Both the position numbers and the translations under genes were made by a program. A stretch of 59,394 nucleotides of DNA from Clostridia bacterium (GTDB taxonomy: Bacteria > Bacillota > Clostridia > Oscillospirales > CAG-272), in contig JAFQFS010000087.1 in the NCBI GenBank assembly GCA_017398585.1, forward strand, positions 1 to 59,394, given 5' to 3'. Numbering within the stretch: the stretch's first letter is position 1; the number at the start of each line of letters is the position of its first letter. Below, in pieces: positions 1-56,790 of the stretch. The notes under the pieces are model-generated. The model was given only the letters and a program-made list of their open reading frames with translations. It was not told where the DNA came from and made no database searches.

Positions 1-79
1 AAAACCTTTTTGCAAAAAGGTTTTCCCGAACCCTTTCCAAAAAACTTCAGACTGGATGGGACTACGAAGAAAGTGCAGA
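1..79 (+). repeat. Dispersed palindromic repeat unit 1 (left end truncated by window edge)
   Basis: AAAACCTTTTT-GC-AAAAAGGTTTTCCC, tail CCCTTTCCAAAAAACTTC, GTGCAGA at 73-79 after a 24 bp spacer. Confidence 0.85.
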
Positions 80-107
80 TTTTCATTGAAAATCCCCTCA
101 AATCCTC

Positions 108-136
108 TTGACGGATGTGGGGCGATGTGATATAAT
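108..136 (+). promoter_or_regulatory. Sigma-A promoter of the leuS T-box leader
   Basis: TTGACG-17 bp-TATAAT with extended -10 TG. Confidence 0.75.
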
Positions 137-157
137 AACTTTATCCGAAATATTTTA

Positions 158-413
158 AATGCAGTGATGGGGAAAAACGGACCGGAATCCGTGCAGAGAG
201 CTGTCGTCTGGTGCAAGACAGCAGGAGGAACGTTTGATACTCACCCCGAAGCAGCCGTTTGAACGTGCGGGAGACCGCGCCAGTAGATGCGGACGGAACC
301 CTCCGTTACAGGGGCAGGGCATCATGTGTGTCCGGGAGAGGGTAGTTTCTACCGAAAAAGAGTGGTAACACGAGGTTTTTCGCCGCGTCTCTTTGCAGAG
401 ATGGGCGTTTTTT
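158..413 (+). promoter_or_regulatory. Leu T-box riboswitch
   Basis: Stem I with AGAGAG and GGTGCAA motifs, specifier CTC (Leu) at 240-242, T-box AAGAGTGGTAACACG at about 358-372, terminator hairpin plus T-run at 381-413, upstream of leuS. Confidence 0.9.
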
Positions 414-457
414 GTTTCTATCCTCCGAAATCTTATAATTATTACAAGGAAGGCATC

Positions 458-2860
458 ATGAAATACGATTTTAGTGCGATTGAAAAGAAATGGCAGGATA
501 AATGGGAAGAAGCCGGTATTTTCCACGCTTCCGAAGATCACAGCAAGCCGAAGTTCTACGGTCTTGTTGAATTCCCCTATCCGAGCGGTGCCGGCATGCA
601 TGTCGGTCACATCAAGGCGTACTCCGGTCTGGAAGTCATCTCCCGCAAGAGACGTATGCAGGGCTACAATGTTCTGTTCCCGATGGGCTTTGACGCATAC
701 GGTCTGCCCACCGAAAACTATGCGATCAAGACCGGTATTCACCCCCGTCAGGTAACCGACCAGAACATCGCGAAGTTCACCTCTCAGCTCAAGAGAGTAG
801 GCTTCTCCTTCGACTGGACACGCGTTGTCGATACTACTGAAGAAGGCTACTACAAGTGGACCCAGTGGATCTTCCGCAAGATGTTCGATGCGGGACTCGT
901 TTTCCGTGCGACCACGCTCGTCAACTACTGCCCGTTCTGCAAGGTCGTTCTCTCCAACGAAGACTCCCAGGGCGGCAAGTGCGATATCTGCCACAACGAT
1001 ATTATCCAGAAGTCCAAGGACGTATGGTATCTCCGCATTACCGAATACGCGGACAAGCTCCTCGAAGGTCTCGAAAAGGTTGACTACCTGCCGAACGTAA
1101 AGCTCCAGCAGGAAAACTGGATCGGCCGTTCCGAAGGCGCATTCGTCAACTTCGCTCTCACGAACTGCGACGAAACCCTCCGCATCTACACCACCCGCTG
1201 TGACACCATGTTCGGAGCGACCTTCATGGTCATCGCTCCCGAACATCCGATCATTGAAAAGTACGCGGACCGTATCTCCAACATCGACGCGCTGAACGCG
1301 TATAAGGAAGAATGCGCAAAGAAGACCGAATTCGAACGTACCCAGCTCGTCAAGGACAAGACCGGCGTGCGCATCGAAGGCATTGCTGCGATCAACCCCG
1401 CAACGGGCAAGGAAATCCCGATCTACATCTCCGACTACGTTATGATGGGCTATGGTACCGGCGCGATCATGGCAGTACCGGCACACGACGAACGTGACTA
1501 CGACTTTGCAAAGAAGTTCGGCATCGAGATCATCGAAGTCATCAAGGGCGGCGACATTTCCAAGGAAGCCTACACCGGCGACGGCGAAATGGTCAACTCC
1601 GGATTCCTGAACGGCATCGAAACCAAGAAGGAAGCCATCGCAAAGATGCTCGAGTACCTCGGTGAAAAAGGTCTCGGCGAAAAGGGCGTACAGTACAAGA
1701 TGAAGGACTGGGCGTTCAACCGTCAGCGTTACTGGGGCGAACCGATTCCGATCGTACACTGCCCGAAGTGCGGTATGGTCGGCGTTCCCTACGAAGAACT
1801 CCCGCTCAAGCTCCCGAACATGGAAAACTTCGCACCCGGTGAAGGCGGCGAAAGCCCGCTCGCAAAGGTCGAAGAATTCGTCAACTGCTCCTGCCCGAAA
1901 TGCGGCGGCGCGGCAAAGCGTGAAACCGACACCATGCCCCAGTGGGCAGGTTCCTCCTGGTACTTCCTCCGTTACGCGGACGCGCACAACGAAGACGCAT
2001 TCGCGGATCCGGAAAAGCTGAAGTACTGGCTCCCCGTTGACTGGTACAACGGCGGTATGGAACACGTTACCCGTCACATGATCTACTCCCGCTTCTGGCA
2101 CCGCTTCCTTTACGACATCGGCGCAGTTCCGGTGGACGAACCCTACGCAAAGCGTACCGCACAGGGTCTGATCCTCGGTCCGGACGGCGACAAGATGAGT
2201 AAGTCCAAGGGCAACGTTGTTGACCCGAACGATGTCGTCAACGAATACGGCGCAGACGTTCTCCGTGTGTACATCCTCTTCATGGGCGACTATGCGTCCG
2301 CGGCTCCGTGGAACGACAGCAGCGTCAAGGGATGCAAGCGCTTCCTCGACCGCGTTGCAGCTCTCACCGACCTCGTAAAGGGTACCGGCGTGACTGCAAA
2401 GCTCGAATCCGCATTCCACAAGACCGTCAAGAAAGTGACTGAAGACATCGAAGACATGAAGTTCAACACCGCCATCGCGGCGATGATGACCCTCATCAAC
2501 ACCATCTACGAAGTCGGCAGCCTCACCGCAGACGAACTGAAGACGCTTCTCAAGCTCCTCTGCCCGTTTGCACCGCATCTCTGTGAAGAAATGTGGGAAA
2601 CCCTCGGCGAAAAGAACTTCCTCTCCATGACCGCATGGCCGGAATGGGACGAAGCGAAGACCGTTGACGCGGAAATCGAAATCGCCGTACAGGTCAGCGG
2701 CAAGCTCCGTGCGACCATCACCATCGCGGCAGACGCTTCCAAGGAAGACGCCATCGCAGCCGCTCTCGCAGACGAACGCATTCAGGCAGCCATCGCCGGC
2801 AAGAACGTCGTCAAGGAAATCTACATCCCCGGCAAGATCGTCAACATCGTGGCTAAGTAA
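458..2860 (+). CDS. leuS: Leucine--tRNA ligase
   Basis: FPYPSGAGMHVGH (HIGH), KMSKS, editing-domain GYGTGAIMAVPAHD; start moved to ATG 458 after RBS AAGGAAGG. Confidence 0.97.
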   Translation: MKYDFSAIEKKWQDKWEEAGIFHASEDHSKPKFYGLVEFPYPSGAGMHVGHIKAYSGLEVISRKRRMQGYNVLFPMGFDAYGLPTENYAIKTGIHPRQVTDQNIAKFTSQLKRVGFSFDWTRVVDTTEEGYYKWTQWIFRKMFDAGLVFRATTLVNYCPFCKVVLSNEDSQGGKCDICHNDIIQKSKDVWYLRITEYADKLLEGLEKVDYLPNVKLQQENWIGRSEGAFVNFALTNCDETLRIYTTRCDTMFGATFMVIAPEHPIIEKYADRISNIDALNAYKEECAKKTEFERTQLVKDKTGVRIEGIAAINPATGKEIPIYISDYVMMGYGTGAIMAVPAHDERDYDFAKKFGIEIIEVIKGGDISKEAYTGDGEMVNSGFLNGIETKKEAIAKMLEYLGEKGLGEKGVQYKMKDWAFNRQRYWGEPIPIVHCPKCGMVGVPYEELPLKLPNMENFAPGEGGESPLAKVEEFVNCSCPKCGGAAKRETDTMPQWAGSSWYFLRYADAHNEDAFADPEKLKYWLPVDWYNGGMEHVTRHMIYSRFWHRFLYDIGAVPVDEPYAKRTAQGLILGPDGDKMSKSKGNVVDPNDVVNEYGADVLRVYILFMGDYASAAPWNDSSVKGCKRFLDRVAALTDLVKGTGVTAKLESAFHKTVKKVTEDIEDMKFNTAIAAMMTLINTIYEVGSLTADELKTLLKLLCPFAPHLCEEMWETLGEKNFLSMTAWPEWDEAKTVDAEIEIAVQVSGKLRATITIAADASKEDAIAAALADERIQAAIAGKNVVKEIYIPGKIVNIVAK

Positions 2861-2882
2861 TTGAATACAGTGAGAAATGAAT

Positions 2883-2937
2883 CGGGGGAAACCTTTTTGA
2901 AAAAAGGTTTCCCCCGAACCCCTTTCCAAAAACGTTT
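2883..2937 (+). repeat. Dispersed palindromic repeat unit 2
   Basis: CGGGGGAAACCTTTTT-GA-AAAAAGGTTTCCCCCG then CCCCTTTCCAAAAACGTTT, starting about 23 bp after the leuS stop. Confidence 0.9.
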
Positions 2938-2973
2938 CATCCGGATGGATTGGATTAAGTTTGTAGAAAGTGC

Positions 2974-3003
2974 TTGACATATATAGTGTTGATGTGGTAT
3001 AAT
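2974..3003 (+). promoter_or_regulatory. Sigma-A promoter
   Basis: TTGACA-18 bp-TATAAT with TG extension. Confidence 0.7.
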
Positions 3004-3036
3004 GTCTACAAATACAGAATATGTGAGGTGCGGACA

Positions 3037-3819
3037 ATGAAACGATGGATTGCGGGAATATTCGTGATGGTTCTGCTGTGCTGCGGCGGCTGTGCGGAAA
3101 AACCGGTGGAAGAGAAGGTCAAAATGGACGATCTCATGAAGATCAGCACGTGGGTGATGGATCCGGCACTGGAAGGGAAAGGGTACTGGGCGTATGACAG
3201 GGATAGTTATGGCACCAAGGGGCACTGGGTTCCGAACAAAGGGGAGCCTGCCGTGAACGACGAAGACGTCTTCCGTGAGGAACGTCTTGCGGTGGGAGAG
3301 ACACGCATCATGGCACCGATCGGCTACAAAGGGGGGAATCTGAACTTTACCATTGATTTCGAAGGAATCGTCACGGTGGAAAAGACCGAACCGGCGGACC
3401 ACAGCATCCTGACTTCCTTTGAACCGAATCTGGCCGATCAGTGGATTGAGGAGACGCTCATCACCCGCAACGGTCCATGCAATCTGAACGTCTTTCCGGT
3501 AGGAAAAAATCTGGCCAGCGAAGGAAGAGGTCTTTTGATTCAGCATAATACCATCGCGGAGAAGGAATATTTACTGACCATCAAGGGATACGAACTGGAC
3601 GGTTCGCTGATGGTCACGGCAGAACTGAAGCTGACCACACTGGAAGACGAAGCGTTTCCGTATGAAGAGTATATTCAGGAAACATACAGAAGAACCGGCG
3701 GCTACGCAGGGTATGGGGAATTGTATGCGGTCGGAGAAAACCGTACCCGGTTCTGCTCGGTGGAACTGGTGTCCTACGAATACAGCGACCACTACAAAAT
3801 GATGGAAATCTTCGGATAA
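3037..3819 (+). CDS. Hypothetical lipoprotein
   Basis: ATG 3037 after GAGGTG; signal peptide MKRWIAGIFVMVLLCCGG|C; no recognised domain. Confidence 0.75.
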   Translation: MKRWIAGIFVMVLLCCGGCAEKPVEEKVKMDDLMKISTWVMDPALEGKGYWAYDRDSYGTKGHWVPNKGEPAVNDEDVFREERLAVGETRIMAPIGYKGGNLNFTIDFEGIVTVEKTEPADHSILTSFEPNLADQWIEETLITRNGPCNLNVFPVGKNLASEGRGLLIQHNTIAEKEYLLTIKGYELDGSLMVTAELKLTTLEDEAFPYEEYIQETYRRTGGYAGYGELYAVGENRTRFCSVELVSYEYSDHYKMMEIFG

Positions 3820-3821
3820 AC

Positions 3822-3861
3822 AAAACGTGCGTACAGACGTTACGGTCTGCACGCACGTTTT
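3822..3861. terminator. Bidirectional intrinsic terminator
   Basis: AAAACGTGCGTACAGAC..GTCTGCACGCACGTTTT between convergent genes. Confidence 0.7.
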
Positions 3862-3877
3862 CTCGTGCCGTTATTTT

Positions 3878-5251
3878 TCAGTTATCACGCCGGATCACGG
3901 CGAATTTTGTGGTTTCGTACCATTCCTCCACGGACGATTCCGTGAGGTCGGAGAAGATCAGCGTCCGCAGTCCGCCGAACAGGACGATGTCCCTCGTATC
4001 CATGACGCGGGAATCGGATGAAAAACACCGGGAATCCTGAGGATCTCCCTCGTTCAGTGTGACGGCGTATATTTTCCGTTCTTCCGGAAAACCGGGACGG
4101 GAAAACTCGATGCAGTAGATCTGCCGGAGATGTTCCTCCGTCAGTTCATGGGCATCGTTCAGCCCGAAGTACCCGCACACCGTCTCGCGAAGGACCGGAT
4201 TTGCGAGATCCACGCCGAGGTTGTCGAAATTCCGCACCTGTCCTGCCGACATCATGCCGAGATTCAGCAGCGCACCGAGAAGAAGCACCGGCACCGCCCG
4301 TGCAATGTTCCGGCGCCGATCGTGGCGTTCCTTCATATTGCGGTACCGCCGCAGGATCGCGTTTCCGCCCGGCGACAGATACGACAGAATTTCCGCACCC
4401 TGCCAGTCTTCGCGGAGGTTCCGCTCCGCCATGTTCAGGATCATTGCGATGTACTCCCCGCGCATCCGGTCGCCCGTCTTGTCGAGCACCGCCTCGTCGC
4501 AGAGGTATTCCAGATCCTCGCACACTGCGTTCCGGATGACCTTCGCCGTCGGAAGCAGAATGTGAAACGACGTTGTAAACAGCGTCAGCAGCTTGGTCAG
4601 CGTGTCCCAGTGCCGGATATGCGTCAGCTCATGCATGAAGATCAGTTCCAGCCAGAGGTCACTGTAATCGTCCGGACAGTCCCCGCCGATGTAGACGGAA
4701 GGGAAGAGGATCCCGCATGTGCACGGCGAAATCCGTACGTCCGGCTTCATGATACGGAGCGGGATGTTCCGCCGGATTCCGACCTTTTTCTTCGCGGAGG
4801 CGTAGATCCGATTCAGCCGTTCGTCCCGACAGACGGCGGAATGCCGGGTCAGGTACTGCATCCCGTCAAAATACGCCGCCAGTCCGAACGTGAACGACGC
4901 CGTTGCCGCCACGAACCAGAACAGAAGCAGCGTCAGACAGAAGCCGCGTGCCGCCCGCAGGACACCGTGCGGCAGGTACACGTCCGGCACATCCGCCGGA
5001 CGTTCCGCTTCTCCCGGATCGTGCAGTTCGACCCGCAGTCCGCCCGTGTAATCGGTGTACAGGGCAAATTCGACGGCATTTTTTCCGCTGTCCACGGGAA
5101 TCAGTGCAATGAGAAACAGCAGGCACCAGAAAACGGGCAGGATCCGCAGACTGTACTTCGACCGGAGCCGGAGTACCAGAACGGAAACGCCCGTAAAAAG
5201 AAAAGAAAGGGCGGCCAGCATAAAAAACAGTACGATGATCCTGTTTTCCAT
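3878..5251 (-). CDS. M56 family metallopeptidase (BlaR1/MecR1-like signal transducer)
   Basis: N-terminal TM helices, HELTH (HExxH), ExxCD motif; directly downstream of a BlaI-like gene. Confidence 0.88.
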   Translation of the reverse strand: MENRIIVLFFMLAALSFLFTGVSVLVLRLRSKYSLRILPVFWCLLFLIALIPVDSGKNAVEFALYTDYTGGLRVELHDPGEAERPADVPDVYLPHGVLRAARGFCLTLLLFWFVAATASFTFGLAAYFDGMQYLTRHSAVCRDERLNRIYASAKKKVGIRRNIPLRIMKPDVRISPCTCGILFPSVYIGGDCPDDYSDLWLELIFMHELTHIRHWDTLTKLLTLFTTSFHILLPTAKVIRNAVCEDLEYLCDEAVLDKTGDRMRGEYIAMILNMAERNLREDWQGAEILSYLSPGGNAILRRYRNMKERHDRRRNIARAVPVLLLGALLNLGMMSAGQVRNFDNLGVDLANPVLRETVCGYFGLNDAHELTEEHLRQIYCIEFSRPGFPEERKIYAVTLNEGDPQDSRCFSSDSRVMDTRDIVLFGGLRTLIFSDLTESSVEEWYETTKFAVIRRDN

Positions 5252-5278
5252 AGCGCCGCTCCTCTCCGTGGGTATGCC

Positions 5279-5677
5279 TTACTTCTTTTCGTTTTCGCTG
5301 ATAATCTTCTTGATTTCGTCAAGTTCTTCCGCAGTGAGGCTTTCATCGCTGACGAGCGCGGAGATCAGCCCCATTTTGTCGTTCATGTAAACCTTTTCGA
5401 CGAAATCGCCGGAAGCAAACTTTCTGTAGTCGGCGCTGTCAATGATGGGGGTATAGCAGTTGGAACGGCCGAGCTTTTCGGTTGTGATGAAGCCCTTGGT
5501 CTGCAGTCTGGTGATCAGCGTGAGGACCGTCGTGAGCTTGAGTCTGGTAAGAGCGGGGAAGCGCTTCATGATGAGGCCGGCGGAAACGAACTTTTCGCCT
5601 TCTTCGTTGAGCGCCCAGATGGCCTGCATAACTTCGAGCTCGCTTTCGGGGAGCTTGATCATCTTCTTGTCTGACAT
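5279..5677 (-). CDS. BlaI/MecI/CopY family transcriptional repressor
   Basis: LPESELEVMQAIW, TTVLTLITRLQTKGF, LTAEELDEIKKII; start moved to ATG 5677 (RBS AAGGAGA). Confidence 0.92.
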   Translation of the reverse strand: MSDKKMIKLPESELEVMQAIWALNEEGEKFVSAGLIMKRFPALTRLKLTTVLTLITRLQTKGFITTEKLGRSNCYTPIIDSADYRKFASGDFVEKVYMNDKMGLISALVSDESLTAEELDEIKKIISENEKK

Positions 5678-5903
5678 GGTATACGTGTCTCCTTTGTTTG
5701 CAAAAACTTTAATAAATTGAATGATAAAACTGATAAGGAATCGTTTATACATAAATTATAACCTTTTTTACTACACAAGTCAATGCTTTCTTGTAAGATA
5801 AATGAAATCTGTAAAAACGACAAAAAACGCCCGCCGTCCGACTGGATAAATTGAACAAAACGTGTAGTTGTGAAAACAAAAAGATACTTGACAAAAACTT
5901 CGC

Positions 5904-5932
5904 TTGACATATTTCACGTATAGTGTTAAAAT
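5904..5932 (+). promoter_or_regulatory. Sigma-A promoter for DUF3472 gene and asnA
   Basis: TTGACA-17 bp-TAAAAT with TG extension. Confidence 0.65.
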
Positions 5933-5977
5933 ATACAGGAATTCTTCTATTACGCATCCAGGCGGCAGGTACAAACA

Positions 5978-7210
5978 ATGGCAGAAAAACTCATACGAAT
6001 CCCCCTTGCGGGCAACGCATTCCGCGAAACGCCGGGCAGCGGCGGCAAAGTCACCCCAGGCGGCATCTCCGAGTGGTCCGATCCGGACGTAAAATTCGGC
6101 ATTTACGTCAGTTTCCGTGCAGGCGTGACGTTTCACGCCGCGCTGAAACTCCGGAACCAGACGGCAAACGCAAAAATCCGCTTCGCCGCTCTGCAGAATG
6201 ATTACGAAATCGCTCTCGAACCCGGGTATAACGAAGTCCCGCTCGGCACCTATACCACCGAAAAGGACGGTTACGTCCGTTTCGAACTGCAGGGCATTTC
6301 AACGGACGGCACCCATTTCGCTTCTCCGACGGAGCTTTTTCTGTACGTCGCGGACGAAACGGACGTTCTCTCCTGCATCACCCCGAAGGATAAGGAAAAT
6401 TACGGCTACTACTGGACCCGCCGCGGGCCGAGTGTTCACTGCAATTACTCCACGCACGAGATGGAACGCATCGAATGGTTCTACGACGAAGTTACCGTTC
6501 CGGCTGGCTTCGACCCCGTTGGCACCTACGCCATGGCGATCGGCTTCCGCGGAGGCTACTTCGGCATCCAGACCAATTCGAAAAACGAACGACGCATCCT
6601 GTTCTCCGTATGGAGTCCCCATGTGACCGACGATCCGTCCGAAATTCCGGAAGATCTGCGCATCGTCTGTCTGCGCAAACACGAACGCACGCATGTCGGT
6701 GAATTCGGCGGCGAAGGGTCCGGCGGGCAGAGTTACATGAAATACAACTGGAAAACCGGCGAAACCTACCGGTTCCTCATGCACGTACGTCCGCAGGGCG
6801 ACGGCAAAACCGTTTTCACGGCGTATTTCTTCTTCCCGGAAACCGGAAAATTCGAATGTATCGCCTCTTTCCTGCGTCCGAAAACCGATACCTGGATGAT
6901 CGGCGTCCATTCCTTCCTCGAAAATTTCAGCGATACCCGCGGCTATATCACCCGCATGGCGTACTACGGCAATCCGTGGGCACGTACCGCGGACGGTCAG
7001 TGGTTCTCCCCGAAGCGGATCCTGCTGACCGGCGACAATACCGCGCGTCAGAGCTGGCGTACCGACTACGACGGCGGAATGCTGGACGACGGACGTTTCT
7101 ACCTGAAAAACGGCGGTTTCTTCGACGAACACGCGCCGCTGGATAAAATTTTCTACCGGACGTTTGCCGATTCCGTCCGTCCCGACCTTGATTTAAATGA
7201 ACTTGAATAA
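5978..7210 (+). CDS. DUF3472 (DUF5077 N-terminal) domain protein
   Basis: Motifs RRGPSVH, GYFGIQTNS, RRILFSVWSP, FGGEGSGGQSY, SFLENF. Confidence 0.8.
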   Translation: MAEKLIRIPLAGNAFRETPGSGGKVTPGGISEWSDPDVKFGIYVSFRAGVTFHAALKLRNQTANAKIRFAALQNDYEIALEPGYNEVPLGTYTTEKDGYVRFELQGISTDGTHFASPTELFLYVADETDVLSCITPKDKENYGYYWTRRGPSVHCNYSTHEMERIEWFYDEVTVPAGFDPVGTYAMAIGFRGGYFGIQTNSKNERRILFSVWSPHVTDDPSEIPEDLRIVCLRKHERTHVGEFGGEGSGGQSYMKYNWKTGETYRFLMHVRPQGDGKTVFTAYFFFPETGKFECIASFLRPKTDTWMIGVHSFLENFSDTRGYITRMAYYGNPWARTADGQWFSPKRILLTGDNTARQSWRTDYDGGMLDDGRFYLKNGGFFDEHAPLDKIFYRTFADSVRPDLDLNELE

Positions 7211-7228
7211 GCAGAAGGAGTCCCTGCT

Positions 7229-8233
7229 ATGTTATACATTCCCGAAAACTACAAACCGCGCCTCGCCATGTACGATGTCCAGCGCGCGATCGACTACATC
7301 AAACGCACCTTCCAGATGAACCTTGCCATCGAACTGAACCTCCGCCGCGTTTCCGCGCCCCTGTTCGTCCGCGAAGACTCCGGTCTGAACGACAACCTCA
7401 GCGGGAAGGAACGTCCGGTCGGCTTTGACATCCCCGCGGTCGGCGAAACCGCGCAGGTCGTACAGTCTCTCGCAAAGTGGAAGCGTCTCGCCCTTAAGCG
7501 ATACGAATTCTACGTCGGCAAGGGCCTCTACACCGATATGAATGCCATCCGCCGCGACGAGGATGATCTCGACAATCTCCATTCCGTCTACGTCGACCAG
7601 TGGGACTGGGAAAAGGTCATCGACCGCAGCATGCGCACCACTGAATACCTCCACCAGACCGTCCGCAAGATCGTTGCGGCTATGGTTGCGACCAACAACG
7701 CTCTCCGCTACGAATTCTCCGCGCTCGAATGCCACATTTCCCCCGAAGTTTCCTTCATCACCACGCAGGAACTCGAAGACATGTATCCCGACAAGACCCC
7801 GAAGGAACGTGAAAACCTCTACGTAAAAGAGCATCCCACCACGTTCCTCGAAAAGATCGGCGGCAAGCTGAAGAGCGGCAAGCCGCACGATGGCCGCGCC
7901 CCCGACTACGACGACTGGGAACTCAACGGCGACATTCTCCTCTGGAACGACGTCCTGGGCTGTGCGTTTGAAATTTCCTCGATGGGTATCCGCGTCGACG
8001 CGGAATCCCTTGCAAAGCAGCTGAAGCTCGCCGGATGCGAAGACCGCGCGGAACTCCCGTTCCACAAAATGCTCCTGAACGACGAACTTCCGCTCACCAT
8101 CGGCGGCGGTATCGGTCAGTCCAGACTCTGCATGCTCATGATGCAGACCGCCCATATCGGCGAAGTACAGGCATCCGTATGGGACAAGCATACCATCGAA
8201 GCCTGCCGGAACGCGGGAATCACGCTGCTTTAA
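7229..8233 (+). CDS. asnA: Aspartate--ammonia ligase
   Basis: SLAKWKR, HSVYVDQWDWEK, HDGRAPDYDDW, TIGGGIGQSR. Confidence 0.97.
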   Translation: MLYIPENYKPRLAMYDVQRAIDYIKRTFQMNLAIELNLRRVSAPLFVREDSGLNDNLSGKERPVGFDIPAVGETAQVVQSLAKWKRLALKRYEFYVGKGLYTDMNAIRRDEDDLDNLHSVYVDQWDWEKVIDRSMRTTEYLHQTVRKIVAAMVATNNALRYEFSALECHISPEVSFITTQELEDMYPDKTPKERENLYVKEHPTTFLEKIGGKLKSGKPHDGRAPDYDDWELNGDILLWNDVLGCAFEISSMGIRVDAESLAKQLKLAGCEDRAELPFHKMLLNDELPLTIGGGIGQSRLCMLMMQTAHIGEVQASVWDKHTIEACRNAGITLL

Positions 8234-8401
8234 CTGAATAAATCATCCAAAAATCCCGTTTTTTTGCACGGGCAGGGAACTTTTCGGCGGCGGAAAACGT
8301 CTTATTACTGAAAAAACTCTGCGGACGTGCATCAAAACGGGATTTCTGTCCAAAAATTACCCGTAATCTTTCGGGACCGGCAAAGAATTCATATTTTAAT
8401 A

Positions 8402-8430
8402 TTGAAAAATTTCCCGTAATATCGTATAAT
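8402..8430 (+). promoter_or_regulatory. Sigma-A promoter of the surface-glycan operon
   Basis: TTGAAA-17 bp-TATAAT. Confidence 0.7.
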
Positions 8431-8477
8431 AATAAGAACGAAAAAACAAATTCCAAAAGAAAGCAAGGAGGAACGCT

Positions 8478-10589
8478 ATGGCATCCGCCCCCAGAGGTCA
8501 GGGCGATAACAGCGGAAACTTTTTTGTCCGTCTTGTTCGCGCCAGCATCATACTGACTGCCCTCGACCGGTTCTGCGCATACATTTATCACCTCATCAAG
8601 ACCGGGTTCTTCGGGTATATCTTCAGCGGCTACCGCGGTGAGCTGAACGCCCCGCTTTTTTCCGGTCTCCGGAGATCCAAGACGTCCCGCCACTTCGCGG
8701 AACTGCGGTACGGTCTGTGCCGGCGGATCGAATCCAGTGTGATTCTGAACGGCATCACGTATTTCGGAAAATACCTGCTCGGATGCCGCCTGCGCTGTTA
8801 CGGCGCATTCTTTGCCTCCTTCGGGTTCTATACCGCCTTTTCCGCCTATCTGTATTCCATGTTTTCGGGCGACCTCGCCTCGGTTGCGGATCATCCGTAC
8901 ATCCTTCCGGCGTTGGTCATGCTCCTTGCCTCCATCCCCCTCGTTATGTCCAAACGGACCCTTTCCCAGTCCCTGCGTGAGACCCTGTTCGGCCGCTTCG
9001 TCATGCTGGCCACCGGCTTCACCGCAGAAGACATCGCGGACACGCTCGGCGCGGGCGGACATCAGGGAATCCCCTTCCTCTTCGGCATTATCTGCGGCGC
9101 CATGACCTACTTTGTTTCGCCGGTTTATATCCTCCTCGGAATGGCGGCGCTGCTGTGGCTCTATCTGGTCATGATCCGTCCGGAACTCGGCGTACTGACG
9201 CTGTTCTTCGCGATGCCGTTGTTCCCGACCATGCTCCTCGGTGCAGTCACCGCCTACACGGTGTTCTGTACTTTTATCAAGTTCCTCCGCGGCAAGCGGA
9301 TCCTCCGGATCGAACCCATCGACATCACCGTGATGGCGTTTGCCGTTCTTCTGTTTTTCGGCGGGACCGTCTCTCTGTCCGAACAGTCGCTCAAGCCGGC
9401 GCTCCTGATGGTCTGCTTCATTTTCGGTTATTTCCTCACCGTCGGACTGATGACCACCCGTGCGTGGCTCGTCCGCTGCTCGACGGCGTGCGTGCTCTCC
9501 GCCACCCTCGTTTCACTCTACGGTATTTTCATGTACTTTACCGGCGGCGGCTATTCCTCCTCCGCATGGCTTGACAGCGAAATGTTCTCCGGTATCGGCG
9601 GACGTGCCGTAGCGACCCTTGAAAACCCCAACATGCTCGGTGAATACCTCATTCTCATCATTCCGATCGCGGTCGGCATGCTGATCGGACGCGGGGAAGG
9701 ACTCCGCCGCATCCCGGCATTTTTCTGCATCGGCATCATGGGTGTCTGCCTCATCCTCACGTGGAGCCGCGGCGCATGGCTCGGCCTGATCTTCGCCGCT
9801 CTCCTCTTCCTGTTCATGTGGCACCGCCGCTCCGTCTGGGTGATCCTCGCAGGCATCGCATCCATTCCTGTCCTGCCGATGATCCTGCCGGCATCCATCG
9901 TCTCGCGCTTCACCAGCATCGGCAACATGACCGACTCGTCCACGTCCTACCGTGTGTACATCTGGCGTGCGACCATCAATATGATCGAGGACAACCTTAC
10001 CACCGGCATCGGCATCGGAGAAGGTGCATGGGACCGTCTGTATCCCCTGTACGCCTACCTCGGTGTGGAAGCCGCACCTCACTCGCATAACCTCTATCTG
10101 CAGATCTGGCTGGAACTCGGTATCATCGGACTTCTCGTCTTTGTCGTCTTCCTGTTCCTGCTGTACCAGTCCGGGTTCACGCTCTTCTCCCGCCTTGCCG
10201 GAGACAGCGACCTTTCCACTCCGGACCTTTCCGGCAGTCTCCTCCGCCGGAACCTGAGCGAAGGTCTGGATCTCCGCAGGGAACTTGAACGCAGCAAGAC
10301 CCAGCTCCGTCTCTCCACTGCCGCTCCCCTCTGCGGGATCTTCGCCGTCCTCGTGCAGGGCATGACCGACTATGCGTGGTACAACTACCGCCTGTACCTC
10401 ATGTTCTGGCTCGTCTGCGGACTGGCCTCCGCGTATGCGAGAAACGGCAGCAGCCAGATCCGTACTTCCTATACCAATACCTCCGAACATTTCAGCGCGG
10501 ATTTTCCGCTCGATACCGGAACCAAGAAGAAAAAAGTCAACACGGAACCCGAACGTACGGGAGACACCGAAGAAAGGAAAGAGAAATGA
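8478..10589 (+). CDS. O-antigen ligase (Wzy_C/IctB-like) family membrane protein
   Basis: Many TM segments; ENPNMLGEYL, TWSRGAWLG, R-x-x-IW..GIG, HSHNLYLQ. Confidence 0.88.
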   Translation: MASAPRGQGDNSGNFFVRLVRASIILTALDRFCAYIYHLIKTGFFGYIFSGYRGELNAPLFSGLRRSKTSRHFAELRYGLCRRIESSVILNGITYFGKYLLGCRLRCYGAFFASFGFYTAFSAYLYSMFSGDLASVADHPYILPALVMLLASIPLVMSKRTLSQSLRETLFGRFVMLATGFTAEDIADTLGAGGHQGIPFLFGIICGAMTYFVSPVYILLGMAALLWLYLVMIRPELGVLTLFFAMPLFPTMLLGAVTAYTVFCTFIKFLRGKRILRIEPIDITVMAFAVLLFFGGTVSLSEQSLKPALLMVCFIFGYFLTVGLMTTRAWLVRCSTACVLSATLVSLYGIFMYFTGGGYSSSAWLDSEMFSGIGGRAVATLENPNMLGEYLILIIPIAVGMLIGRGEGLRRIPAFFCIGIMGVCLILTWSRGAWLGLIFAALLFLFMWHRRSVWVILAGIASIPVLPMILPASIVSRFTSIGNMTDSSTSYRVYIWRATINMIEDNLTTGIGIGEGAWDRLYPLYAYLGVEAAPHSHNLYLQIWLELGIIGLLVFVVFLFLLYQSGFTLFSRLAGDSDLSTPDLSGSLLRRNLSEGLDLRRELERSKTQLRLSTAAPLCGIFAVLVQGMTDYAWYNYRLYLMFWLVCGLASAYARNGSSQIRTSYTNTSEHFSADFPLDTGTKKKKVNTEPERTGDTEERKEK

Positions 10590-11071
10590 GCAAGAGAAAA
10601 TTGCGTTTCAATGCCATTGACGCACTGATCATCCTTGTGATCGCCGCTGCAGTTTTCGTCCTGCTGTATGTTTTTGTGTTCAGCGGACGCGGAACACAGA
10701 ATACAGCGGAAGTCAACTATACCACCATCAACTATGTTGTCGAGATCCAGAATCTCGACGAACACCTCGCAGAAGCCGTCAAAAAAGGGCAGCCGGTGGA
10801 AGATGCGGTAGAACGCAAGAAAATCGGTACGGTCAGCGGTGTCCAGCCGGTCAAGTATGAAAAGATCACATTCGACTCCCAGAACGGCGTGGAAATTGCC
10901 GCAGCCGTCGGGGGAAAGATCACGCTGAAGATCACCATCGAAGCACAGGCGATCGAGAGTGACCGTGCGTTCACCGTGGACGGATGCGAGATCCGCGTCG
11001 GCCAGCAGTACAGCCTGATCCTCCCCGACCTGTACGGGTTCGGTTACTGCACCGAAATAATCGCCAACTGA
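10586..11071 (+). CDS. DUF4330 family protein
   Basis: ATGA overlap with upstream stop; RFNAIDALIILVI N-terminal anchor, C-terminal EIRVGQ. Confidence 0.75.
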   Translation: MSKRKLRFNAIDALIILVIAAAVFVLLYVFVFSGRGTQNTAEVNYTTINYVVEIQNLDEHLAEAVKKGQPVEDAVERKKIGTVSGVQPVKYEKITFDSQNGVEIAAAVGGKITLKITIEAQAIESDRAFTVDGCEIRVGQQYSLILPDLYGFGYCTEIIAN

Positions 11072-11083
11072 CGGAGGTGCATC

Positions 11084-12310: not shown

Positions 12311-12319
12311 GGAAATCAA

Positions 12320-13108: not shown

Positions 13109-13123
13109 CGATTGGAGATCATT

Positions 13124-13636: not shown

Positions 13637-13640
13637 AGCA

Positions 13641-13682: not shown

Positions 13683-13694
13683 GTTATCAGGCAA

Positions 13695-14495: not shown

Positions 14496-14525
14496 GATTT
14501 TCCTCCTTATTGGGAAGTGAAGTTA

Positions 14526-14611
14526 TTGGGGAGGAACTTTTTGAAAAAAGTTCCTCCCCAACCCCCTCTTCCAAAACTTTTGGACGAATAAGAAACAGGG
14601 TATGGTGCGGA
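14526..14611 (+). repeat. Dispersed palindromic repeat unit 3
   Basis: TTGGGGAGGAACTTTTT-GA-AAAAAGTTCCTCCCCAA, tail CCCCCTCTTCCAAAACTTT, GTGCGGA 24 bp later. Confidence 0.9.
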
Positions 14612-17051: not shown

Positions 17052-17315
17052 GGGGAAAAACTTTTTGGAAAAAGTTTTTCCCCAAGTTAATTTATTAACT
17101 TGTCACCCCATTTTCAAAAACTTTTATACGAAAAGGAGAAACATAGTTGAGTGCAGATTTGAAGTACCTGAATTTTGTTAAGCTGACAAAATTACGTATA
17201 CGAACGCTCTGCACAAACTCAGTCTGTCTTTTCAGTTTAAAGTTTTTTGGAAGGGTGTCCGGTTCCGACTTGCAGAGCAAGTCGGGGAAAACTTTTTTCA
17301 AAAAAGTTTTCCCCG
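17052..17315. repeat. Inverted doublet of the palindromic repeat (units 4 and 5), REPIN/MITE-like
   Basis: Hairpins at 17052-17083 and 17283-17315 with tails facing inward; inner GTGCAGA 17151-17157 and TCTGCAC 17208-17214. Confidence 0.88.
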
Positions 17316-17322
17316 AAAAACT

Positions 17323-21499: not shown

Positions 21500-21571
21500 A
21501 AAGGTTTTGGAAATGGGGCAACAAGCTGCATAAGCAACTTGGGGAAACCTTTTTCTCAAAATGGTTTCCCC
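21500..21571 (-). repeat. Dispersed palindromic repeat unit 6 (between serC and serA)
   Basis: Plus strand AAGGTTTTGGAAATGGGG, linker hairpin CAAGCTGC-ATAA-GCAACTTG, GGGGAAACC..GGTTTCCCC. Confidence 0.85.
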
Positions 21572-26391: not shown

Positions 26392-26447
26392 AAAGTTTTT
26401 GAAAAGGGGTGTGGGGAAAAACTTTTTTCAAAAAGTTTTTCCCCACA
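26392..26447 (-). repeat. Dispersed palindromic repeat unit 7
   Basis: Plus strand AAAGTTTTTGAAAAGGGG-TGT-GGGGAAAAACTTTTT-TC-AAAAAGTTTTTCCCCACA, about 14 bp after the prfB stop. Confidence 0.9.
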
Positions 26448-38665: not shown

Positions 38666-38929
38666 GGGGGAGAAACTTTTTGAAAAAATGTTCCCCTGAG
38701 ACTTGCCTTGCAAGTCTCGATCGAACCCCTTCTCAAAAACTTTTCAACGAATGGACAGACAAAGCCGGGTGCAGATTCAGAATACCAAACCGGCTGCACT
38801 GCCAACAGAATTTTGTGACTTCAATTCTGCACATATCTTGTCCATCTGTTCAGTATAAAGTTTTTTGAAATGGGGTTACAAGTTGCCGAGACAACTTGGG
38901 GAAAACTTTTTTTCAAAAAAGTTTTCCCC
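38666..38929. repeat. Inverted doublet of the palindromic repeat (units 8 and 9), REPIN/MITE-like
   Basis: Hairpins at 38666-38696 (imperfect) and 38898-38929; both with linker hairpins; inner GTGCAGA 38769-38775 and TCTGCAC 38826-38832. Confidence 0.85.
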
Positions 38930-38965
38930 GAGAACTCCACCTATTCAAGAAAGGACTTGATACTT

Positions 38966-44739: not shown

Positions 44740-44753
44740 CAAATGTGGTTTCT

Positions 44754-44810
44754 CGGGGAAAACCTTTTTAAGGAAAAGGTTTTCCCCGAACCCCTTTCCA
44801 AAACCTTTTT
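44754..44810 (+). repeat. Dispersed palindromic repeat unit 10
   Basis: CGGGGAAAACCTTTT..AAAAGGTTTTCCCCG, tail CCCCTTTCCAAAACCTTT, about 15 bp after the AEC stop. Confidence 0.9.
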
Positions 44811-44841
44811 GGACTGGAACAAAAATGTGGAGGAATCTTTC

Positions 44842-53513: not shown

Positions 53514-53723
53514 CCGGAGGAACGGCGGAAAATTGTCCGTTGTTGTCAAATTTCATATAAAATTTACGGGAATCCGGACGGATTTCTATGGATATAGCTA
53601 CCGAAAATTTTTATTAAAATGTTCAAAATTACGTAAATATATGTTATAATAATAATAAAGTTATACTGCCGTCTTTTTCGATGGGCGGAAACAAAAAAAT
53701 AATTAAAAATAAAGGGGTATTTT

Positions 53724-54845
53724 ATGAGTGACAGCTTATACGGAGAACTCTCCGTCATCGGTATGCGAGGATGCGAAAAATTCGTTGACCAGGTGGACTA
53801 CTATCTCCGTGAATGGCGCAGCCACGACGAAGACATCACTTTTATCAATATGGCGGACTGCCCGAGATTCGGCTCCGGTGAAGCCAAGGGCCTTATCCAT
53901 ACTTCCATGAGAGGCCACGACGTTTATATCATCTCCGACTGTTTCAACCACGGCGTCACCTACCGTATGTACGGTCAGAACGTTCCCATGAGTCCCGACG
54001 ATCATTTCCAGGATCTGAAGAGAACCATCGCTGCGATCGGTGGTAAGGCAAGCCGTATCACCGTGATCATGCCCATGCTGTACGAAGGCAGACAGCACAA
54101 GCGTACCACCCGTGAATCCCTTGACTGCGCACTTGCTCTTCAGGAACTCGTGAATATGGGTGTCTCCAATATCCTTACGTTCGACGCACATGACCCGCGC
54201 GTCAGCAATGCGATCCCGCTGACCGGCTTTGACAATGTACGTCCTACATACCAGATGATCAAGGCTCTGGTAAGGAATGTTCCCGATATCTCCCTCTCTC
54301 ATGATGATATCATGATCATTTCTCCCGACGAAGGTGCGATCTCCCGTACGATGTACTACGCATCCGTTATGGGCATCGAACTCGGTATGTTCTATAAGAG
54401 ACGCAACTATTCCGTTATCATCGACGGCAAGAACCCGATCGAAGCGCATGAATATCTCGGTAAGGATGTCCGCGGCAAGGACGTGATCGTTGTCGACGAC
54501 ATGATCTCCTCCGGTGACTCCATCATCGACGTTGCACGTCAGCTCAAGGAAAAGGGCGCGAAGCGCATCTTCTTCTTTGTGACCTTCGGTCTGTTCACCA
54601 ACGGTTTCGGCGTGATGGACAAGGCATACGAAGAAGGCCTCTTCACCAAGTGCTTTACTACCAACCTGATCTACCAGCCGGAAGGCCTTCTTGACAGAGA
54701 ATGGTACGGCGAAGTCAATATGTGCAAGTACGTTGCGCTCATGATCGACACCCTCAATCAGGACCGCTCCATCAGCACTCTCCTGAACCCCGTGAAGAAG
54801 ATCCACAGCGTTCTGGACGCTCATAAAAACTCCACTCAGAAATAA
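53724..54845 (+). CDS. prs: Ribose-phosphate pyrophosphokinase
   Basis: FGSGE, YEGRQ, FDAH, SPDEGA, VVDDMISSGDS. Confidence 0.92.
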   Translation: MSDSLYGELSVIGMRGCEKFVDQVDYYLREWRSHDEDITFINMADCPRFGSGEAKGLIHTSMRGHDVYIISDCFNHGVTYRMYGQNVPMSPDDHFQDLKRTIAAIGGKASRITVIMPMLYEGRQHKRTTRESLDCALALQELVNMGVSNILTFDAHDPRVSNAIPLTGFDNVRPTYQMIKALVRNVPDISLSHDDIMIISPDEGAISRTMYYASVMGIELGMFYKRRNYSVIIDGKNPIEAHEYLGKDVRGKDVIVVDDMISSGDSIIDVARQLKEKGAKRIFFFVTFGLFTNGFGVMDKAYEEGLFTKCFTTNLIYQPEGLLDREWYGEVNMCKYVALMIDTLNQDRSISTLLNPVKKIHSVLDAHKNSTQK

Positions 54846-54877
54846 TTTATAACCAATCACTCGGAGCAAAAGCAAAT

Positions 54878-56590
54878 ATGCAGAATTTCAAATATATCAC
54901 CGCAAAAAAAATCAGTGAAGCCATCGGTGCGCTCGTTCCGGACGCCGGATTCACCGTGGAAGACATCGTGACTATGCTCGAATATCCCCCGGATACGTCG
55001 ATGGGTGACGTTGCGTTCCCGTGCTTCCGTCTCTCGAAGCTCATGCGTATGGCTCCTCCGAAAATTGCGTCGGCACTGGCGGAAAAAACCGCAGACTTTG
55101 AAGCCGGCACGTCCCAGGCAGTCGGCGGCTATCTGAACTTCAAGATTTCCGACGGTTACCTCGCCGGACATGTTCTCACCGAAATCGAAGAAAAGGGTGA
55201 GAAATTCGGTTCCAGCAACATCGGGGAAGGCAAGACCGTCGTTCTTGACTACTGTTCTCCGAATCTGATGAAGCCCTTCCATATCGGTCATCTCGGTACG
55301 ACCGTCATCGGTCATTCCCTCAAGCTGCTTCACCAGTTCGTGGGCTATAACTGTGTCGGGATCAACTACCTCGGCGACTGGGGTACCCAGTTCGGCAAGC
55401 AGATCGCCGCATACAAGAAGTGGGGCGACCGCGAAACCATCGAAAAGGGCGGCGTTGACGAACTCGTAAAGCTGTACGTCCGCTACAACAACGAATGCGA
55501 AGACAACGACGCACTCAAGGACGAAGCAAGAGCCGAATTCCATAAGCTCGAAGAGGGCGACGAAGAAAACCTCGCTCTCTGGAAATGGTTCGTGGAAGTT
55601 TCTTTTGAGGAATGTAAGAAGACCTGCGACCTTCTCGGCGTTACCTTCGACTCCTTCAAGGGCGAATCCTTCTATACTGACAAAATGCCCGCACAGGTCG
55701 AAAAGCTCCGCGAAACCGGTCTTCTGAAGATGGATGAAGGTGCTTCCATTGTCGATCTGTCGGACTACAATATGCCGCCGTGCCTCATCCTCAAGAAGGA
55801 CGGATCCACTCTGTATCCCACCCGTGACATTGCCGCTGCCGTATATCGCAAGAATACCTACGATTTCGACAAGTGCATCTACGTCACCTCTTCCGCACAG
55901 AGCCTCCACTTTGCACAGTGGTTCAAGGTTGTGGAACTGATGGGCTACGACTGGAGCGACAAGCTGGTTCACGTACCTTACGGTACCGTATCCATCGACG
56001 GCGCAAAGCTCGCAACCCGTACCGGTAACGTGGTTCTTCTCCGTGACCTGTTCCGCCTGTCCATCGAAAAGGTCAGCGAAATCATGAATGAAAAGAGCCC
56101 CGATCTCGAAAACCGCGAAGCGGTAGCGGAAGCAGTCGGGATTGGCGCAATCGTATTCAATTATCTGTATAACAGCCGTATCAAGGACATCAACTTCACG
56201 CTCGAACAGGCGCTCAGCTTTGACGGAAGCACAGGTCCCTACGCGCAGTATACCTACGCGAGAACCTGCAGCATCCTCGAAAAGGCAGCGGGCGTGGTCA
56301 GTGAAGGTGAAGGAAAGCTGACGAGCGAAAGTGAAGCAGCTCTCCTCAAGACGCTGTCCCGTTTCCCGGAAATCGTTGCTAACGCAATCGAAGAATACGA
56401 ACCTTCCAACATCACCCGCTACGTCATCGACGTATGTACCGCGTTCAACCGTTTCTATCGCGACTGCCCGATCCTCACGGCAGAGGAAGAAGAACAGCGC
56501 CAGTTCCGTGTCCGCCTCACCAAGGCAGCCAAGACGGTCCTCGGCACCGCACTTCACCTCATCTGCATGAAGACGCCGGAGAAGATTTAA
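54878..56590 (+). CDS. argS: Arginine--tRNA ligase
   Basis: SPNLMKPFHIGH, NYLGDWGTQFG, GSTGPYAQYTYAR, C-terminal PEKI. Confidence 0.96.
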   Translation: MQNFKYITAKKISEAIGALVPDAGFTVEDIVTMLEYPPDTSMGDVAFPCFRLSKLMRMAPPKIASALAEKTADFEAGTSQAVGGYLNFKISDGYLAGHVLTEIEEKGEKFGSSNIGEGKTVVLDYCSPNLMKPFHIGHLGTTVIGHSLKLLHQFVGYNCVGINYLGDWGTQFGKQIAAYKKWGDRETIEKGGVDELVKLYVRYNNECEDNDALKDEARAEFHKLEEGDEENLALWKWFVEVSFEECKKTCDLLGVTFDSFKGESFYTDKMPAQVEKLRETGLLKMDEGASIVDLSDYNMPPCLILKKDGSTLYPTRDIAAAVYRKNTYDFDKCIYVTSSAQSLHFAQWFKVVELMGYDWSDKLVHVPYGTVSIDGAKLATRTGNVVLLRDLFRLSIEKVSEIMNEKSPDLENREAVAEAVGIGAIVFNYLYNSRIKDINFTLEQALSFDGSTGPYAQYTYARTCSILEKAAGVVSEGEGKLTSESEAALLKTLSRFPEIVANAIEEYEPSNITRYVIDVCTAFNRFYRDCPILTAEEEEQRQFRVRLTKAAKTVLGTALHLICMKTPEKI

Positions 56591-56604
56591 ACTATAAAAA
56601 ATTC

Positions 56605-56790
56605 GGGGAAAACTTTTTTGGAAAAAAGTTTTCCCCAAGCCCCTTTCAAAAAACTTTATACGGGTATAGATACAAAGAACAGTGCAGATTTCTCGTTAGA
56701 TCTGCACAAAACTTTGTCCTTATATTTGTATAAAAGTTTTTGAAGGTGGGGTTTGGGGAGGGGACTTTTTCCAAAAAGTCCCCTCCCCAA
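56605..56790. repeat. Inverted doublet of the palindromic repeat (units 11 and 12), REPIN/MITE-like
   Basis: Hairpins at 56605-56636 and 56753-56790; inner GTGCAGA 56682-56688 and TCTGCAC 56701-56707. Confidence 0.9.

Follow-up and report, generated by a model that had tools for sequence, protein, structure and literature searches.

We describe a family of high-copy interspersed repeats in the window, by which we mean the whole 59,394-nucleotide (nt) stretch of DNA that was analyzed (JAFQFS010000087.1, contig C79 of the Clostridia bacterium draft genome GCA_017398585.1, which comprises 3.18 Mb in 178 contigs with 54% G+C). Each repeat unit consists of a hairpin, a short linker, and a tail, and the tail names the type of base pair in its own stem, level by level; no Watson-Crick partner accounts for this pattern. 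Judged from the sequences and by analogy with a direct precedent in Escherichia coli, a triple helix with the tail as third strand would be the only simple physical model that fits such a parallel, level-by-level relation, and we read these repeats as a new family of triplex-capable interspersed repeats. Our best explanation is an interspersed repeat module whose third-strand tail would form a triplex in the G-rich DNA strand, to which we give a probability of roughly 0.4; some form of triple helix, either in DNA or in RNA, appears probable.

Genome-wide, 503 non-nested hairpins with perfect stems of at least 10 bp were found, 401 of them with a simple tail on one side, and 12 units lie inside the window. 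A small second hairpin separates stem from tail in 45 candidates, and when up to two stem mismatches were allowed, the number of tailed units was 518, of which 452 are perfect. Counts of anatomy below refer to the 401 simple-tailed units and comparisons of arm with tail to the 392 units that could be parsed. Read on the C-rich strand, a unit begins with a weakly conserved 5' flank (consensus AAAtgaagTTTcTC) and a 5' arm made of GGGG, an A-rich purine block with some G, C or CC, and T5-6; the loop and the complementary 3' arm, which ends in CCCC, are followed by three linker nucleotides (GAA 166 times, AAA 85 times, and GGA 47 times) and by a tail of 13 to 15 nt that runs CCCC, T-rich block, C or CC, A5-6, C, TTT. 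The hairpin measures 14 to 17 bp and stays intact in the minimum-energy folds of 385/385 units, with energies of −17.9 kcal/mol as DNA and −17.5 to −25.8 kcal/mol as RNA; its loop is asymmetric, reading GA in 209 units versus TC in 12. The stem is 2 to 3 bp longer than an earlier, sequence-only reading of this DNA had drawn it, since linker bases 1 and 2 pair with the two bases preceding GGGG in 339/401 units. Where a second hairpin intervenes, the link between arm and tail is unbroken.

That same reading had proposed that the tail is the mirror image, not the complement, of the purine arm, and this holds throughout the genome: of the four possible relations between tail and arm, only one gives an alignment, namely, the 5' arm's complement read in parallel and hence a mirrored 3' arm, with a score of 4.49 for own arms versus 3.76 for shuffled tails (z of 17), while the three others (Watson-Crick, direct, and reverse) score negatively. 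Going up the stem, the tail places C over G.C pairs, T over A.T pairs in the lower part, and A over T.A pairs in the upper part, and usually skips one level. The single rule "C over each G.C pair, otherwise the 3'-arm base" describes 343/392 units within two edits (mean edit distance of 1.74 for own tails versus 2.62, with a standard deviation of 0.036, for shuffled ones); a strict mirror fits 153/392, and a Watson-Crick relation needs at least 10 edits in all 392. Among 69 arm/tail haplotypes, none of 2,000 shuffles reached the observed score, nor did any of 2,000 shuffles restricted to tails of equal length, although these tests ignore the relatedness of copies and so overstate independence. 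The position of the arm's first G equals that of the tail's first C in 359/392 units, a purine block of n levels goes with a tail block of n−1 in 310/392, and the number of C residues at the tail junction matches that of the arm in 273/286 units with one C and 88/98 with two, regardless of the loop. The length of the upper stem is correlated with that of the tail A-run (rho = 0.70), four upper T.A pairs going with four A residues in 37/49 units, five with five in 205/258, and six with six in 66/75. The tail hence tracks the entire stem, and the 6 to 8 mirrored levels suggested earlier were too few; a mirrored G at the junction was likewise not borne out, as the tail carries C there.

The tail follows changes of the arm across 26 arm classes, as had been claimed, except that in this genome it ignores the second and third G of the arm (AGAAAC, AGGAAC, and AGGGAC all occur mostly with TCTTC). 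Arms with AAAAC are accompanied by TTTC in 55/67 units and those with AAAAAC by TTTTC in 41/54; the corresponding figures are 13/15 for AAAACC with TTTCC, 17/19 for AAGAAAC with ATCTTC, and 5/5 for AGGACC with TCTCC, and CC-bearing tails occur only with GG arms (13/67 versus 0/49). Within 60 tail-to-tail pairs, the own arm fits the tail better than the partner's arm does in 93/120 comparisons, equally well in 16, and worse in 11. In a subfamily with AGAYRC arms (29 units from 11 genomes), an A of the 5' arm stands opposite a C of the 3' arm in 23 units and the tail has C in 29/29 (counted by hand from a listing), so that the tail follows the 3' arm, that is, the purine arm on the G-rich strand. 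The rule extends to new arm classes found in other genomes (AGGGAC with TCCCC, AACCC with TCCC, AGGCAC with TCCAC, and AAAAAAC with TTTTTC). Two edits or fewer suffice for 27/35 units from the same genus, 102/116 from named Clostridia metagenome-assembled genomes (MAGs), and 29/30 from other phyla, and in no set did any of 300 shuffles do as well; that these sets have a C-run follows from the design of the search, but the internal pattern of the tail does not. A second family (15 units), with three upper pairs, has an A-run of 3 nt. The better fit of own than of partner arms in pairs, the new classes elsewhere, and this second family are harder to ascribe to descent.

The hairpin of the second family (GGGGAACCTTT-TCAGAGG-AAAGGTTCCCC; e.g., C157:3839 and C135:9680) carries its own mirror tail (CCCCTCCAAA) and then CCTCT, which is complementary to the AGAGG of its loop.

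The geometry is that of an intrastrand triplex, as the sequence-only reading had supposed: in the classification of Holder et al. 2015 (PMC4666352), the G-rich strand belongs to class I and the C-rich strand to class III. The blocks on the G-rich strand are ordered tail, TTC, purine arm, and pyrimidine arm, and canonical triplets of the purine motif occupy 2,837/3,269 lower-stem levels (86.8%); 376 levels are skipped (about one per unit), and 56 bear a noncanonical base. The recurrent T opposite an arm A, noted earlier at 17052, 21541, 38898, and 56753, recurs genome-wide as an A after CCCC in 71/392 tails; on the G-rich strand it is a T·AT triplet, which the purine motif allows. On the same strand the mismatch of the AGAYRC subfamily becomes a G.T wobble, with the tail mirroring the purine arm exactly (the tail follows the purine arm in 26/29 units), and the exception at the junction vanishes, since each G.C pair has a G of the third strand above it, irrespective of the arm in which its own G lies; the T-run of the upper part is parallel to the A-run of the opposite arm. 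Such a geometry is an alternate-strand triplex, a known concept with its own junction rules. The T·AT deviation and the AGAYRC subfamily speak for a fold of the G-rich DNA strand or for H-DNA within duplex DNA.

We propose that the units are end modules of an interspersed repeat of high copy number, which occurs solo or tail to tail around a central palindrome, and that the module comprises a 14- to 17-bp hairpin, a 3-nt turn, and a tail that would serve as third strand. In unwound or supercoiled DNA, the G-rich strand would fold into the hairpin, the closing 2 to 3 bp of the stem would open for the turn, and the tail would then fold into the major groove, running antiparallel along the purine arm of the lower stem in G·GC, A·AT, or T·AT triplets. 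At the purine-to-pyrimidine junction, the tail would skip one level and continue with T·AT and G·GC triplets on the opposite arm's purines, the result being an alternate-strand intrastrand triplex or its H-DNA equivalent in the duplex. Selection might preserve this fold while copies are made or kept, or by way of a polymerase block at gene ends. That natural three-way covariation, found in hundreds of copies, dozens of arm variants, and several phyla, would show a full-length alternate-strand triplex over a 14- to 17-bp hairpin to be under selection in living bacteria is a suggestion that we make tentatively and with more doubt than confidence.

The position of the units relative to genes and to each other bears on these proposals. 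With the tail taken as 3', the 5' neighbor is a gene end for 257 units and a gene start for 82, as judged from a crude, self-trained gene map of the genome. From stop codon to GGGG there are 7 to 8, 11 to 13, or 15 to 17 nt (median of 13, quartiles of 8 and 16). Tail-to-tail neighbors at most 400 nt apart number 75, with spacing peaks at 100 to 120 nt (17 pairs) and 140 to 160 nt (39 pairs), and no other orientation was seen within 400 nt. The pairs have a palindrome in common between their tails (GACAAAG..GTGCAGAT..ATCTGCAC..CTTTGTC), and flank homology extends downstream among 252 units and upstream among only 8. Of 60 tail-to-tail pairs, 59 combine units from different arm classes, e.g., at 56605-56790, and pairs of type A with type B are reported for the E. 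coli motif; the mixing of arm classes may reflect avoidance of long perfect palindromes.

Synteny was compared among five species whose flanks are 66 to 95% identical. The unit at 14528, together with about 75 nt, occurs in genomes G000 and G006 and is missing in G009 and G040 (the unit lies within a segment of about 120 nt that is missing at the same site in the latter two); the pair at 56605/56748 is missing in G010 and G017, where the genes are 19 to 22 nt apart, the pair at 38666/38898 is missing in three species, and the site at 21541 is also empty in some relatives. At 17052/17284 a pair occupies the place where three related species keep a hairpin and T-run terminator, and the last codons of the gene differ. 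At 26406, G040 has a unit of a different subfamily. Orthologous hairpins remain perfect between species with flanks 83 to 90% identical, and their closing pairs change compensatorily (TC/GA versus GT/AC and TGT/ACA versus TTC/GAG). Second hairpins are species-specific insertions precisely at the linker; at two orthologous sites only this genome has them, which indicates that the linker is an insertion hotspot. The 22-nt insert at 21519-21540 was seen only here. The inserted hairpins, of which those in the window are listed in Table 1, are perfect, 17 to 26 nt long, of several types (GAGACTTCC.., GACTTGC.., and AAGTTGC..), and lie exactly between stem and tail. In the G009 orthologue of the unit at 38898, a hairpin of about 40 nt is inserted in the loop of the main hairpin, with arms and tail retained.

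Several observations weigh against a triplex in the G-rich DNA strand. The triplex is, for this sequence, a prediction, and even the E. coli TM_ECO triplex escaped in vivo footprinting with dimethyl sulfate, according to Holder et al. (PMC4666352). With linker bases 1 and 2 paired, a single nucleotide is left for the turn unless these pairs open; the closing pairs compete with the 3-nt turn, and their pairing is what changes compensatorily between species. Stem mismatches in this genome have no strand bias (22 of the A.C type versus 20 of the G.T type), and the tail's indifference to the second and third G of the arm counts here too. At the site of 21541, the arms of three species read AAACC, AAAACC, and AAACC and the tails ATTTCC, TTTCC, and TTTCC, while at 14528 two species have identical arms and different tails; three-way compensation in situ was looked for at orthologous sites and none was seen. 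The copies share descent, and the shuffle tests are to that extent too generous. Finally, units are oriented with genes, so that the sense RNA is the C-rich strand, which fits a role in RNA better than a fold of the G-rich DNA.

Were the triple helix to form in RNA, a prospect that we consider rather unlikely, the sense transcript would end in the hairpin and its C/U-rich tail would fold back as a pyrimidine-motif major-groove triplex (C+·GC and U·AU), which would stabilize or define the mRNA 3' end, akin to the triple-helix 3' ends of some eukaryotic and viral RNAs. The 257 gene ends against 82 starts, the stop codons a median of 13 nt (quartiles of 8 to 16) ahead of GGGG, the 12/22 units of other phyla that lie 8 to 49 nt after a same-strand open reading frame (ORF) of more than 150 codons, the pair at 17052/17284 in the place of the relatives' terminator, and the hairpins kept perfect by compensatory closing pairs at 83 to 90% flank identity all point this way, and 84.7% of the lower-stem levels are canonical for the pyrimidine motif. 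According to Holder et al. (PMC4666352), RNA has intrastrand triplexes of the pyrimidine type but not of the purine type. An RNA fold would, however, need four C+·GC triplets in a row to be protonated, 71/392 tails would be noncanonical in their A after CCCC, the AGAYRC subfamily would place an A.C mismatch in the RNA stem (23/29 units), the A-run over U.A pairs has no standard reading in the pyrimidine motif, no U-tract follows the hairpin, and one pair lies between co-oriented genes that are 19 to 22 nt apart in relatives, an awkward place for a strong terminator. Unlikely as well is that no triple helix exists and that the pattern of strong and weak pairs and the run lengths are read by something else, for example a copying enzyme or a nucleoid protein, so that the mirror would reflect what this reader requires. 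Clean insertions and deletions of units at orthologous sites, copy numbers from 0 to 430 within one genus, pairs with inverted ends around a shared core, homology downstream among 252 units as opposed to 8 upstream, and the same module in several phyla speak for such a reader, but a fixed binding site would forbid the 26 arm classes of this genome, each followed by its tail. Moreover, no Y1 transposase was found here, its presence in the genus does not track the carriers, and no insertion sequence (IS)-like unit appeared in a quick look; proteins are known to read direct or inverted repeats rather than mirror repeats.

That the tail acts by Watson-Crick pairing with the loop or apex, the 5' flank, or the tail of the partner is improbable, even though the most frequent tail (TTTCAAAAA) and the most frequent apex (TTTTTGAAA) are complementary, the loop strongly prefers GA (209 versus 12), the tails of a pair face each other as complements, and the 5' flank of a deltaproteobacterial family can pair with the tail end. 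With any loop, the junction of the tail follows the arm (C in 14/14 units with loop GG and arm C; CC in 23/25 with loop GC and arm CC). Duplex energies of own and shuffled tails hardly differ, whether with the 5' flank (−3.20 versus −3.23 kcal/mol), between apex and tail end (−2.54 versus −2.32 kcal/mol), or with the whole hairpin (−9.05 versus −8.93 kcal/mol); the 5' flank is constant across tail classes, and tails within a pair are identical in 0/60 cases, so that none of these partners, the partner tail included, leaves a signal of own over shuffled. The tail-loop switch that had been offered as an alternative to the triplex therefore finds no covariation, the junction C count following the arm whatever the loop and the energies differing by at most 0.2 kcal/mol. 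Only the segment past the A-run follows the loop (CCTT with AAGG, GAGG, or CAGG; GCTT with CGAG; and CCTCT with AGAGG in 13/15 units of the second family), which in some units would make a pseudoknot-like contact atop the stem. An outer helix of 5' flank and tail end is possible at the consensus level in this genome, without covariation, and looks more real in the deltaproteobacterial family. It is also highly improbable that the mirror is a mere by-product of low-complexity runs and of subfamily descent from a few founders, with the tail unconstrained. The copies are indeed related by descent, some features look inherited en bloc (G040 has a unit of a different subfamily at 26406), and compensation in situ was not seen; yet the rule holds across 26 arm classes here and in new classes elsewhere, survives shuffles at haplotype level and of matched length, favors the own over the partner arm in pairs, and contrasts with a backwards control pattern that matches 0 to 11 times per genome where the true one matches up to 430 times.

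The closest relative among known elements is the E. coli BoxC element, a potential intrastrand triplex (PIT) named TM_ECO. By Holder et al. 2015 (PMC4666352; Hoyne et al. 2000 is cited there), it is described as a hairpin with a 3-nt loop and a third, G-rich block, which forms a triplex in vitro by circular dichroism and nuclear magnetic resonance with melting temperatures of 70 to 82°C; it is interspersed, intergenic, at times arranged as two types in inverted pairs, distributed very unevenly among relatives, linked to local instability, and reportedly devoid of promoter or terminator activity. Our units share with TM_ECO, as there described, the interspersed and intergenic arrangement of a hairpin with a second loop of 3 nt and a third block that mirrors the purine arm; the purine-motif class on one strand and the pyrimidine-motif class on the other; and some inverted pairs of two types, uneven copy number in close relatives, and local insertions and deletions. 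They differ from it in block order (class I, with the third strand 5', rather than class II), in the extra upper T.A stem that the tail tracks, in the roughly 500 copies with many covarying arm variants where TM_ECO copies are nearly identical, in a strong gene-end orientation and fixed spacing that TM_ECO lacks, and in the central palindrome shared by pairs and an occurrence in Firmicutes and several other phyla. There is no sequence similarity, and TM_ECO/BoxC proper was rejected as an identity, its consensus (CCCTCNCCC N3-6 GGGNGAGGG N3 GGGNGAGGG) being unrelated to that of the unit. The units agree with the definition of PIT/TM elements given there, which asks for three consecutive blocks on one strand (here class I/class III) and for canonical triplets along a stem of 6 to 15 levels with at most one mismatch (here 86.8% of levels canonical). 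Both loops of 1 to 6 nt, as the published ITxF limit has it, are not found: the second loop has 3 nt, but the arms are joined through 12 to 16 nt of self-paired upper stem and loop, and such a search would therefore miss these units.

Like repetitive extragenic palindromes (REPs) and bacterial interspersed mosaic elements, for which roles in termination and mRNA stability are proposed, the units are high-copy extragenic palindromes at gene 3' ends in alternating orientation, but REPs have no mirror tail. The GTAG/CGTC tag reported to define REPs (PMC3733652) is absent from the 5' flank consensus, the Y1 (RAYT) transposase family PF01797 has 0 matches in the genome (73.6% complete), and across 53 genomes of the genus the presence of Y1 does not match that of the repeat, full-length hits falling mostly in noncarriers; REP/RAYT identity was ruled out by the missing tag and transposase. 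With MITEs (miniature transposable elements with inverted repeats), the units share small size, lack of coding capacity, inverted ends (75 tail-to-tail neighbors), presence or absence at orthologous sites (14528, 21541, 38666/38898, and 56605/56748), and an occasional supply of stop codons; unlike in MITEs, the ends vary yet keep their internal pairing, which ends bound by a transposase would not. A possible ATAAA duplication was seen at 56605/56748, where the element boundaries are ambiguous, and a quick list of unit pairs 400 to 3,500 nt apart, drawn up on the crude gene map and without a systematic transposase search, held no IS with these ends. As in H-DNA, the 3' arm, linker, and tail form a mirror repeat (TTTTCCCC-gaa-CCCCTTT) and the tail follows the 3' arm despite a mismatch in the 5' arm; in contrast to H-DNA, the tract is short (7 to 10 bp per half), lies inside an inverted repeat, and switches its purine strand halfway. 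Resemblance to intrinsic terminators lies in the stable hairpin right after stop codons and in a position, at one site, where relatives have a canonical terminator. A canonical intrinsic terminator was rejected, as there is no U-tract and the linker GAA, AAA, or GGA is followed by CCCC in 298/401 units, and canonical terminator-like sites in window positions 1-20000 showed no enrichment (29 versus 22.2 ± 5.5). An Rfam scan of the window gave zero families at the gathering score, and in 56560-56830 only subthreshold matches to long, microRNA-like hairpins. A search of the open literature turned up the E. coli precedent but neither this family nor any repeats of Oscillospiraceae; subscription papers and supplements, including the ITxF tables, which could contain related motifs, lay outside its scope.

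A generic pattern of the unit matches 23/53 genomes of the genus, with heavy carriers at 430, 246, 194, 122, and 73 matches, and the commonest hairpin was found in 0/12 other families of the order that were sampled. Named records with the repeat come from animal guts and are MAGs of Oscillospiraceae, Eubacteriales, and Clostridia. Among the matches listed, the module including its tail also occurs in MAGs labeled Desulfomonilaceae, Desulfovibrionaceae, Syntrophaceae, Verrucomicrobiota, Planctomycetaceae, Victivallales, Hydrogenedentota, and Auribacterota; the 12/22 units that follow a same-strand ORF in these other phyla are a raw count without a baseline. Delta proteobacterium, Desulfomonile, and Desulfomonilaceae MAGs (L122-L190) contain a longer related family, in which outer inverted repeats (GGTCGCAA..TTGCGACC and TAAGAGTTTT..AAAACTCT) flank the unit and the 5' flank, rich in purines (GGAAGAG), resembles a degenerate partner for the tail. 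Two metatranscriptome and two DNA runs over window positions 13000-32999 consisted entirely of contigs, which end inside palindromes. Contigs of the assembly and of the public runs start and stop inside palindromes (e.g., window 1-27 and many contig ends), so that the repeat fragments short-read assemblies and is probably undercounted.

The units of the window are listed in Table 1. The sequences quoted in the earlier reading are all in place: positions 26401-26420 read GAAAAGGGG-tgt-GGGGAAAA, and on the G-rich strand the unit at 14526 has tail GAGGGGG with arm GGGGAGG and that at 56753 has tail GGTGGGG with arm GGGGAGGGG. The unit at 2882 starts 22 nt past the stop of ORF 287-2860 and has orthologues in G006 and G040. 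At 44791-44815, the CCAAAA of the tail pairs with the next TTTTGG into a small hairpin after the unit, in a subfamily whose tail continues with CC. Two other structures were seen in the window, namely, an unrelated, perfect, spacerless 42-nt palindrome (21 + 21 nt) at 13641-13682 between the convergent ORFs 13112-13636 and 13695-14495 and, at about 14640-14695, a canonical two-way terminator-like hairpin (AGCACGAAAT..ATTTCGTGCT, then a T-run) that is kept in four species beside the site of unit insertion.

Table 1. Repeat units and pair spacers in the window
Feature	Position	Strand	Parts
Unit truncated by contig start	1..47	+	Hairpin remainder 1-27, linker GAA, tail 31-47
Unit	2882..2936	+	Stem-loop 2882-2917 (arm GGGGGAAACC), tail 2919-2936 (CCCCTTTCCAAAAAC..)
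Unit	14526..14580	+	Stem-loop 14526-14561 (arm GGGGAGGAAC), tail 14562-14580
Pair, left unit	17052..17124	+	Stem-loop 17052-17083, second hairpin 17084-17101, tail 17106-17124 (CCCCATTTTCAAAAAC)
Pair spacer with central palindrome (..GTGCAGAT..ATCTGCAC-like)	17125..17238	.	
Pair, right unit	17239..17316	-	Tail 17239-17255, second hairpin 17267-17283, stem-loop 17282-17316
Unit	21501..21571	-	Tail 21501-21518, inserted 22 nt 21519-21540, stem-loop 21541-21571
Unit quoted in the earlier reading	26392..26447	-	Tail 26392-26409, linker TGT, stem-loop 26410-26447
Pair, left unit	38666..38743	+	Decayed stem-loop 38666-38696, second hairpin 38698-38718, tail 38726-38743
Pair, right unit	38857..38932	-	Tail 38857-38875, inserted hairpin 38876-38897, stem-loop 38895-38932
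Unit	44753..44807	+	Stem-loop 44753-44789 (arm GGGGAAAACC, loop AAGG), tail 44791-44807
Pair, left unit	56605..56657	+	Stem-loop 56605-56636, tail 56640-56657
Pair spacer with central palindrome (ACAAAG..GTGCAGAT..ATCTGCAC..CTTTGT)	56658..56732	.	
Pair, right unit	56733..56790	-	Tail 56733-56751 (G-strand GAAGGTGGGG), stem-loop 56753-56790 (arm GGGGAGGGGAC)

The role of intramolecular triplexes in bacteria is an old question, and the E. coli copies are too alike to reveal selection on a third strand. The family described here amounts to a natural mutagenesis series, in which arm variants occur with tails to match, the skipped level is fixed, and there is a switch of strand. If the tentative suggestion of selection on the triplex is true, this would be the first triplex element supported by evolution and not by oligonucleotide chemistry alone, and it would point to a new class of gene-end signal, or of structure-dependent copying signal, common to several phyla. 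The repeat marks gene ends in little-known gut bacteria and recurs in distant phyla, and it may be a common feature that annotation has missed.

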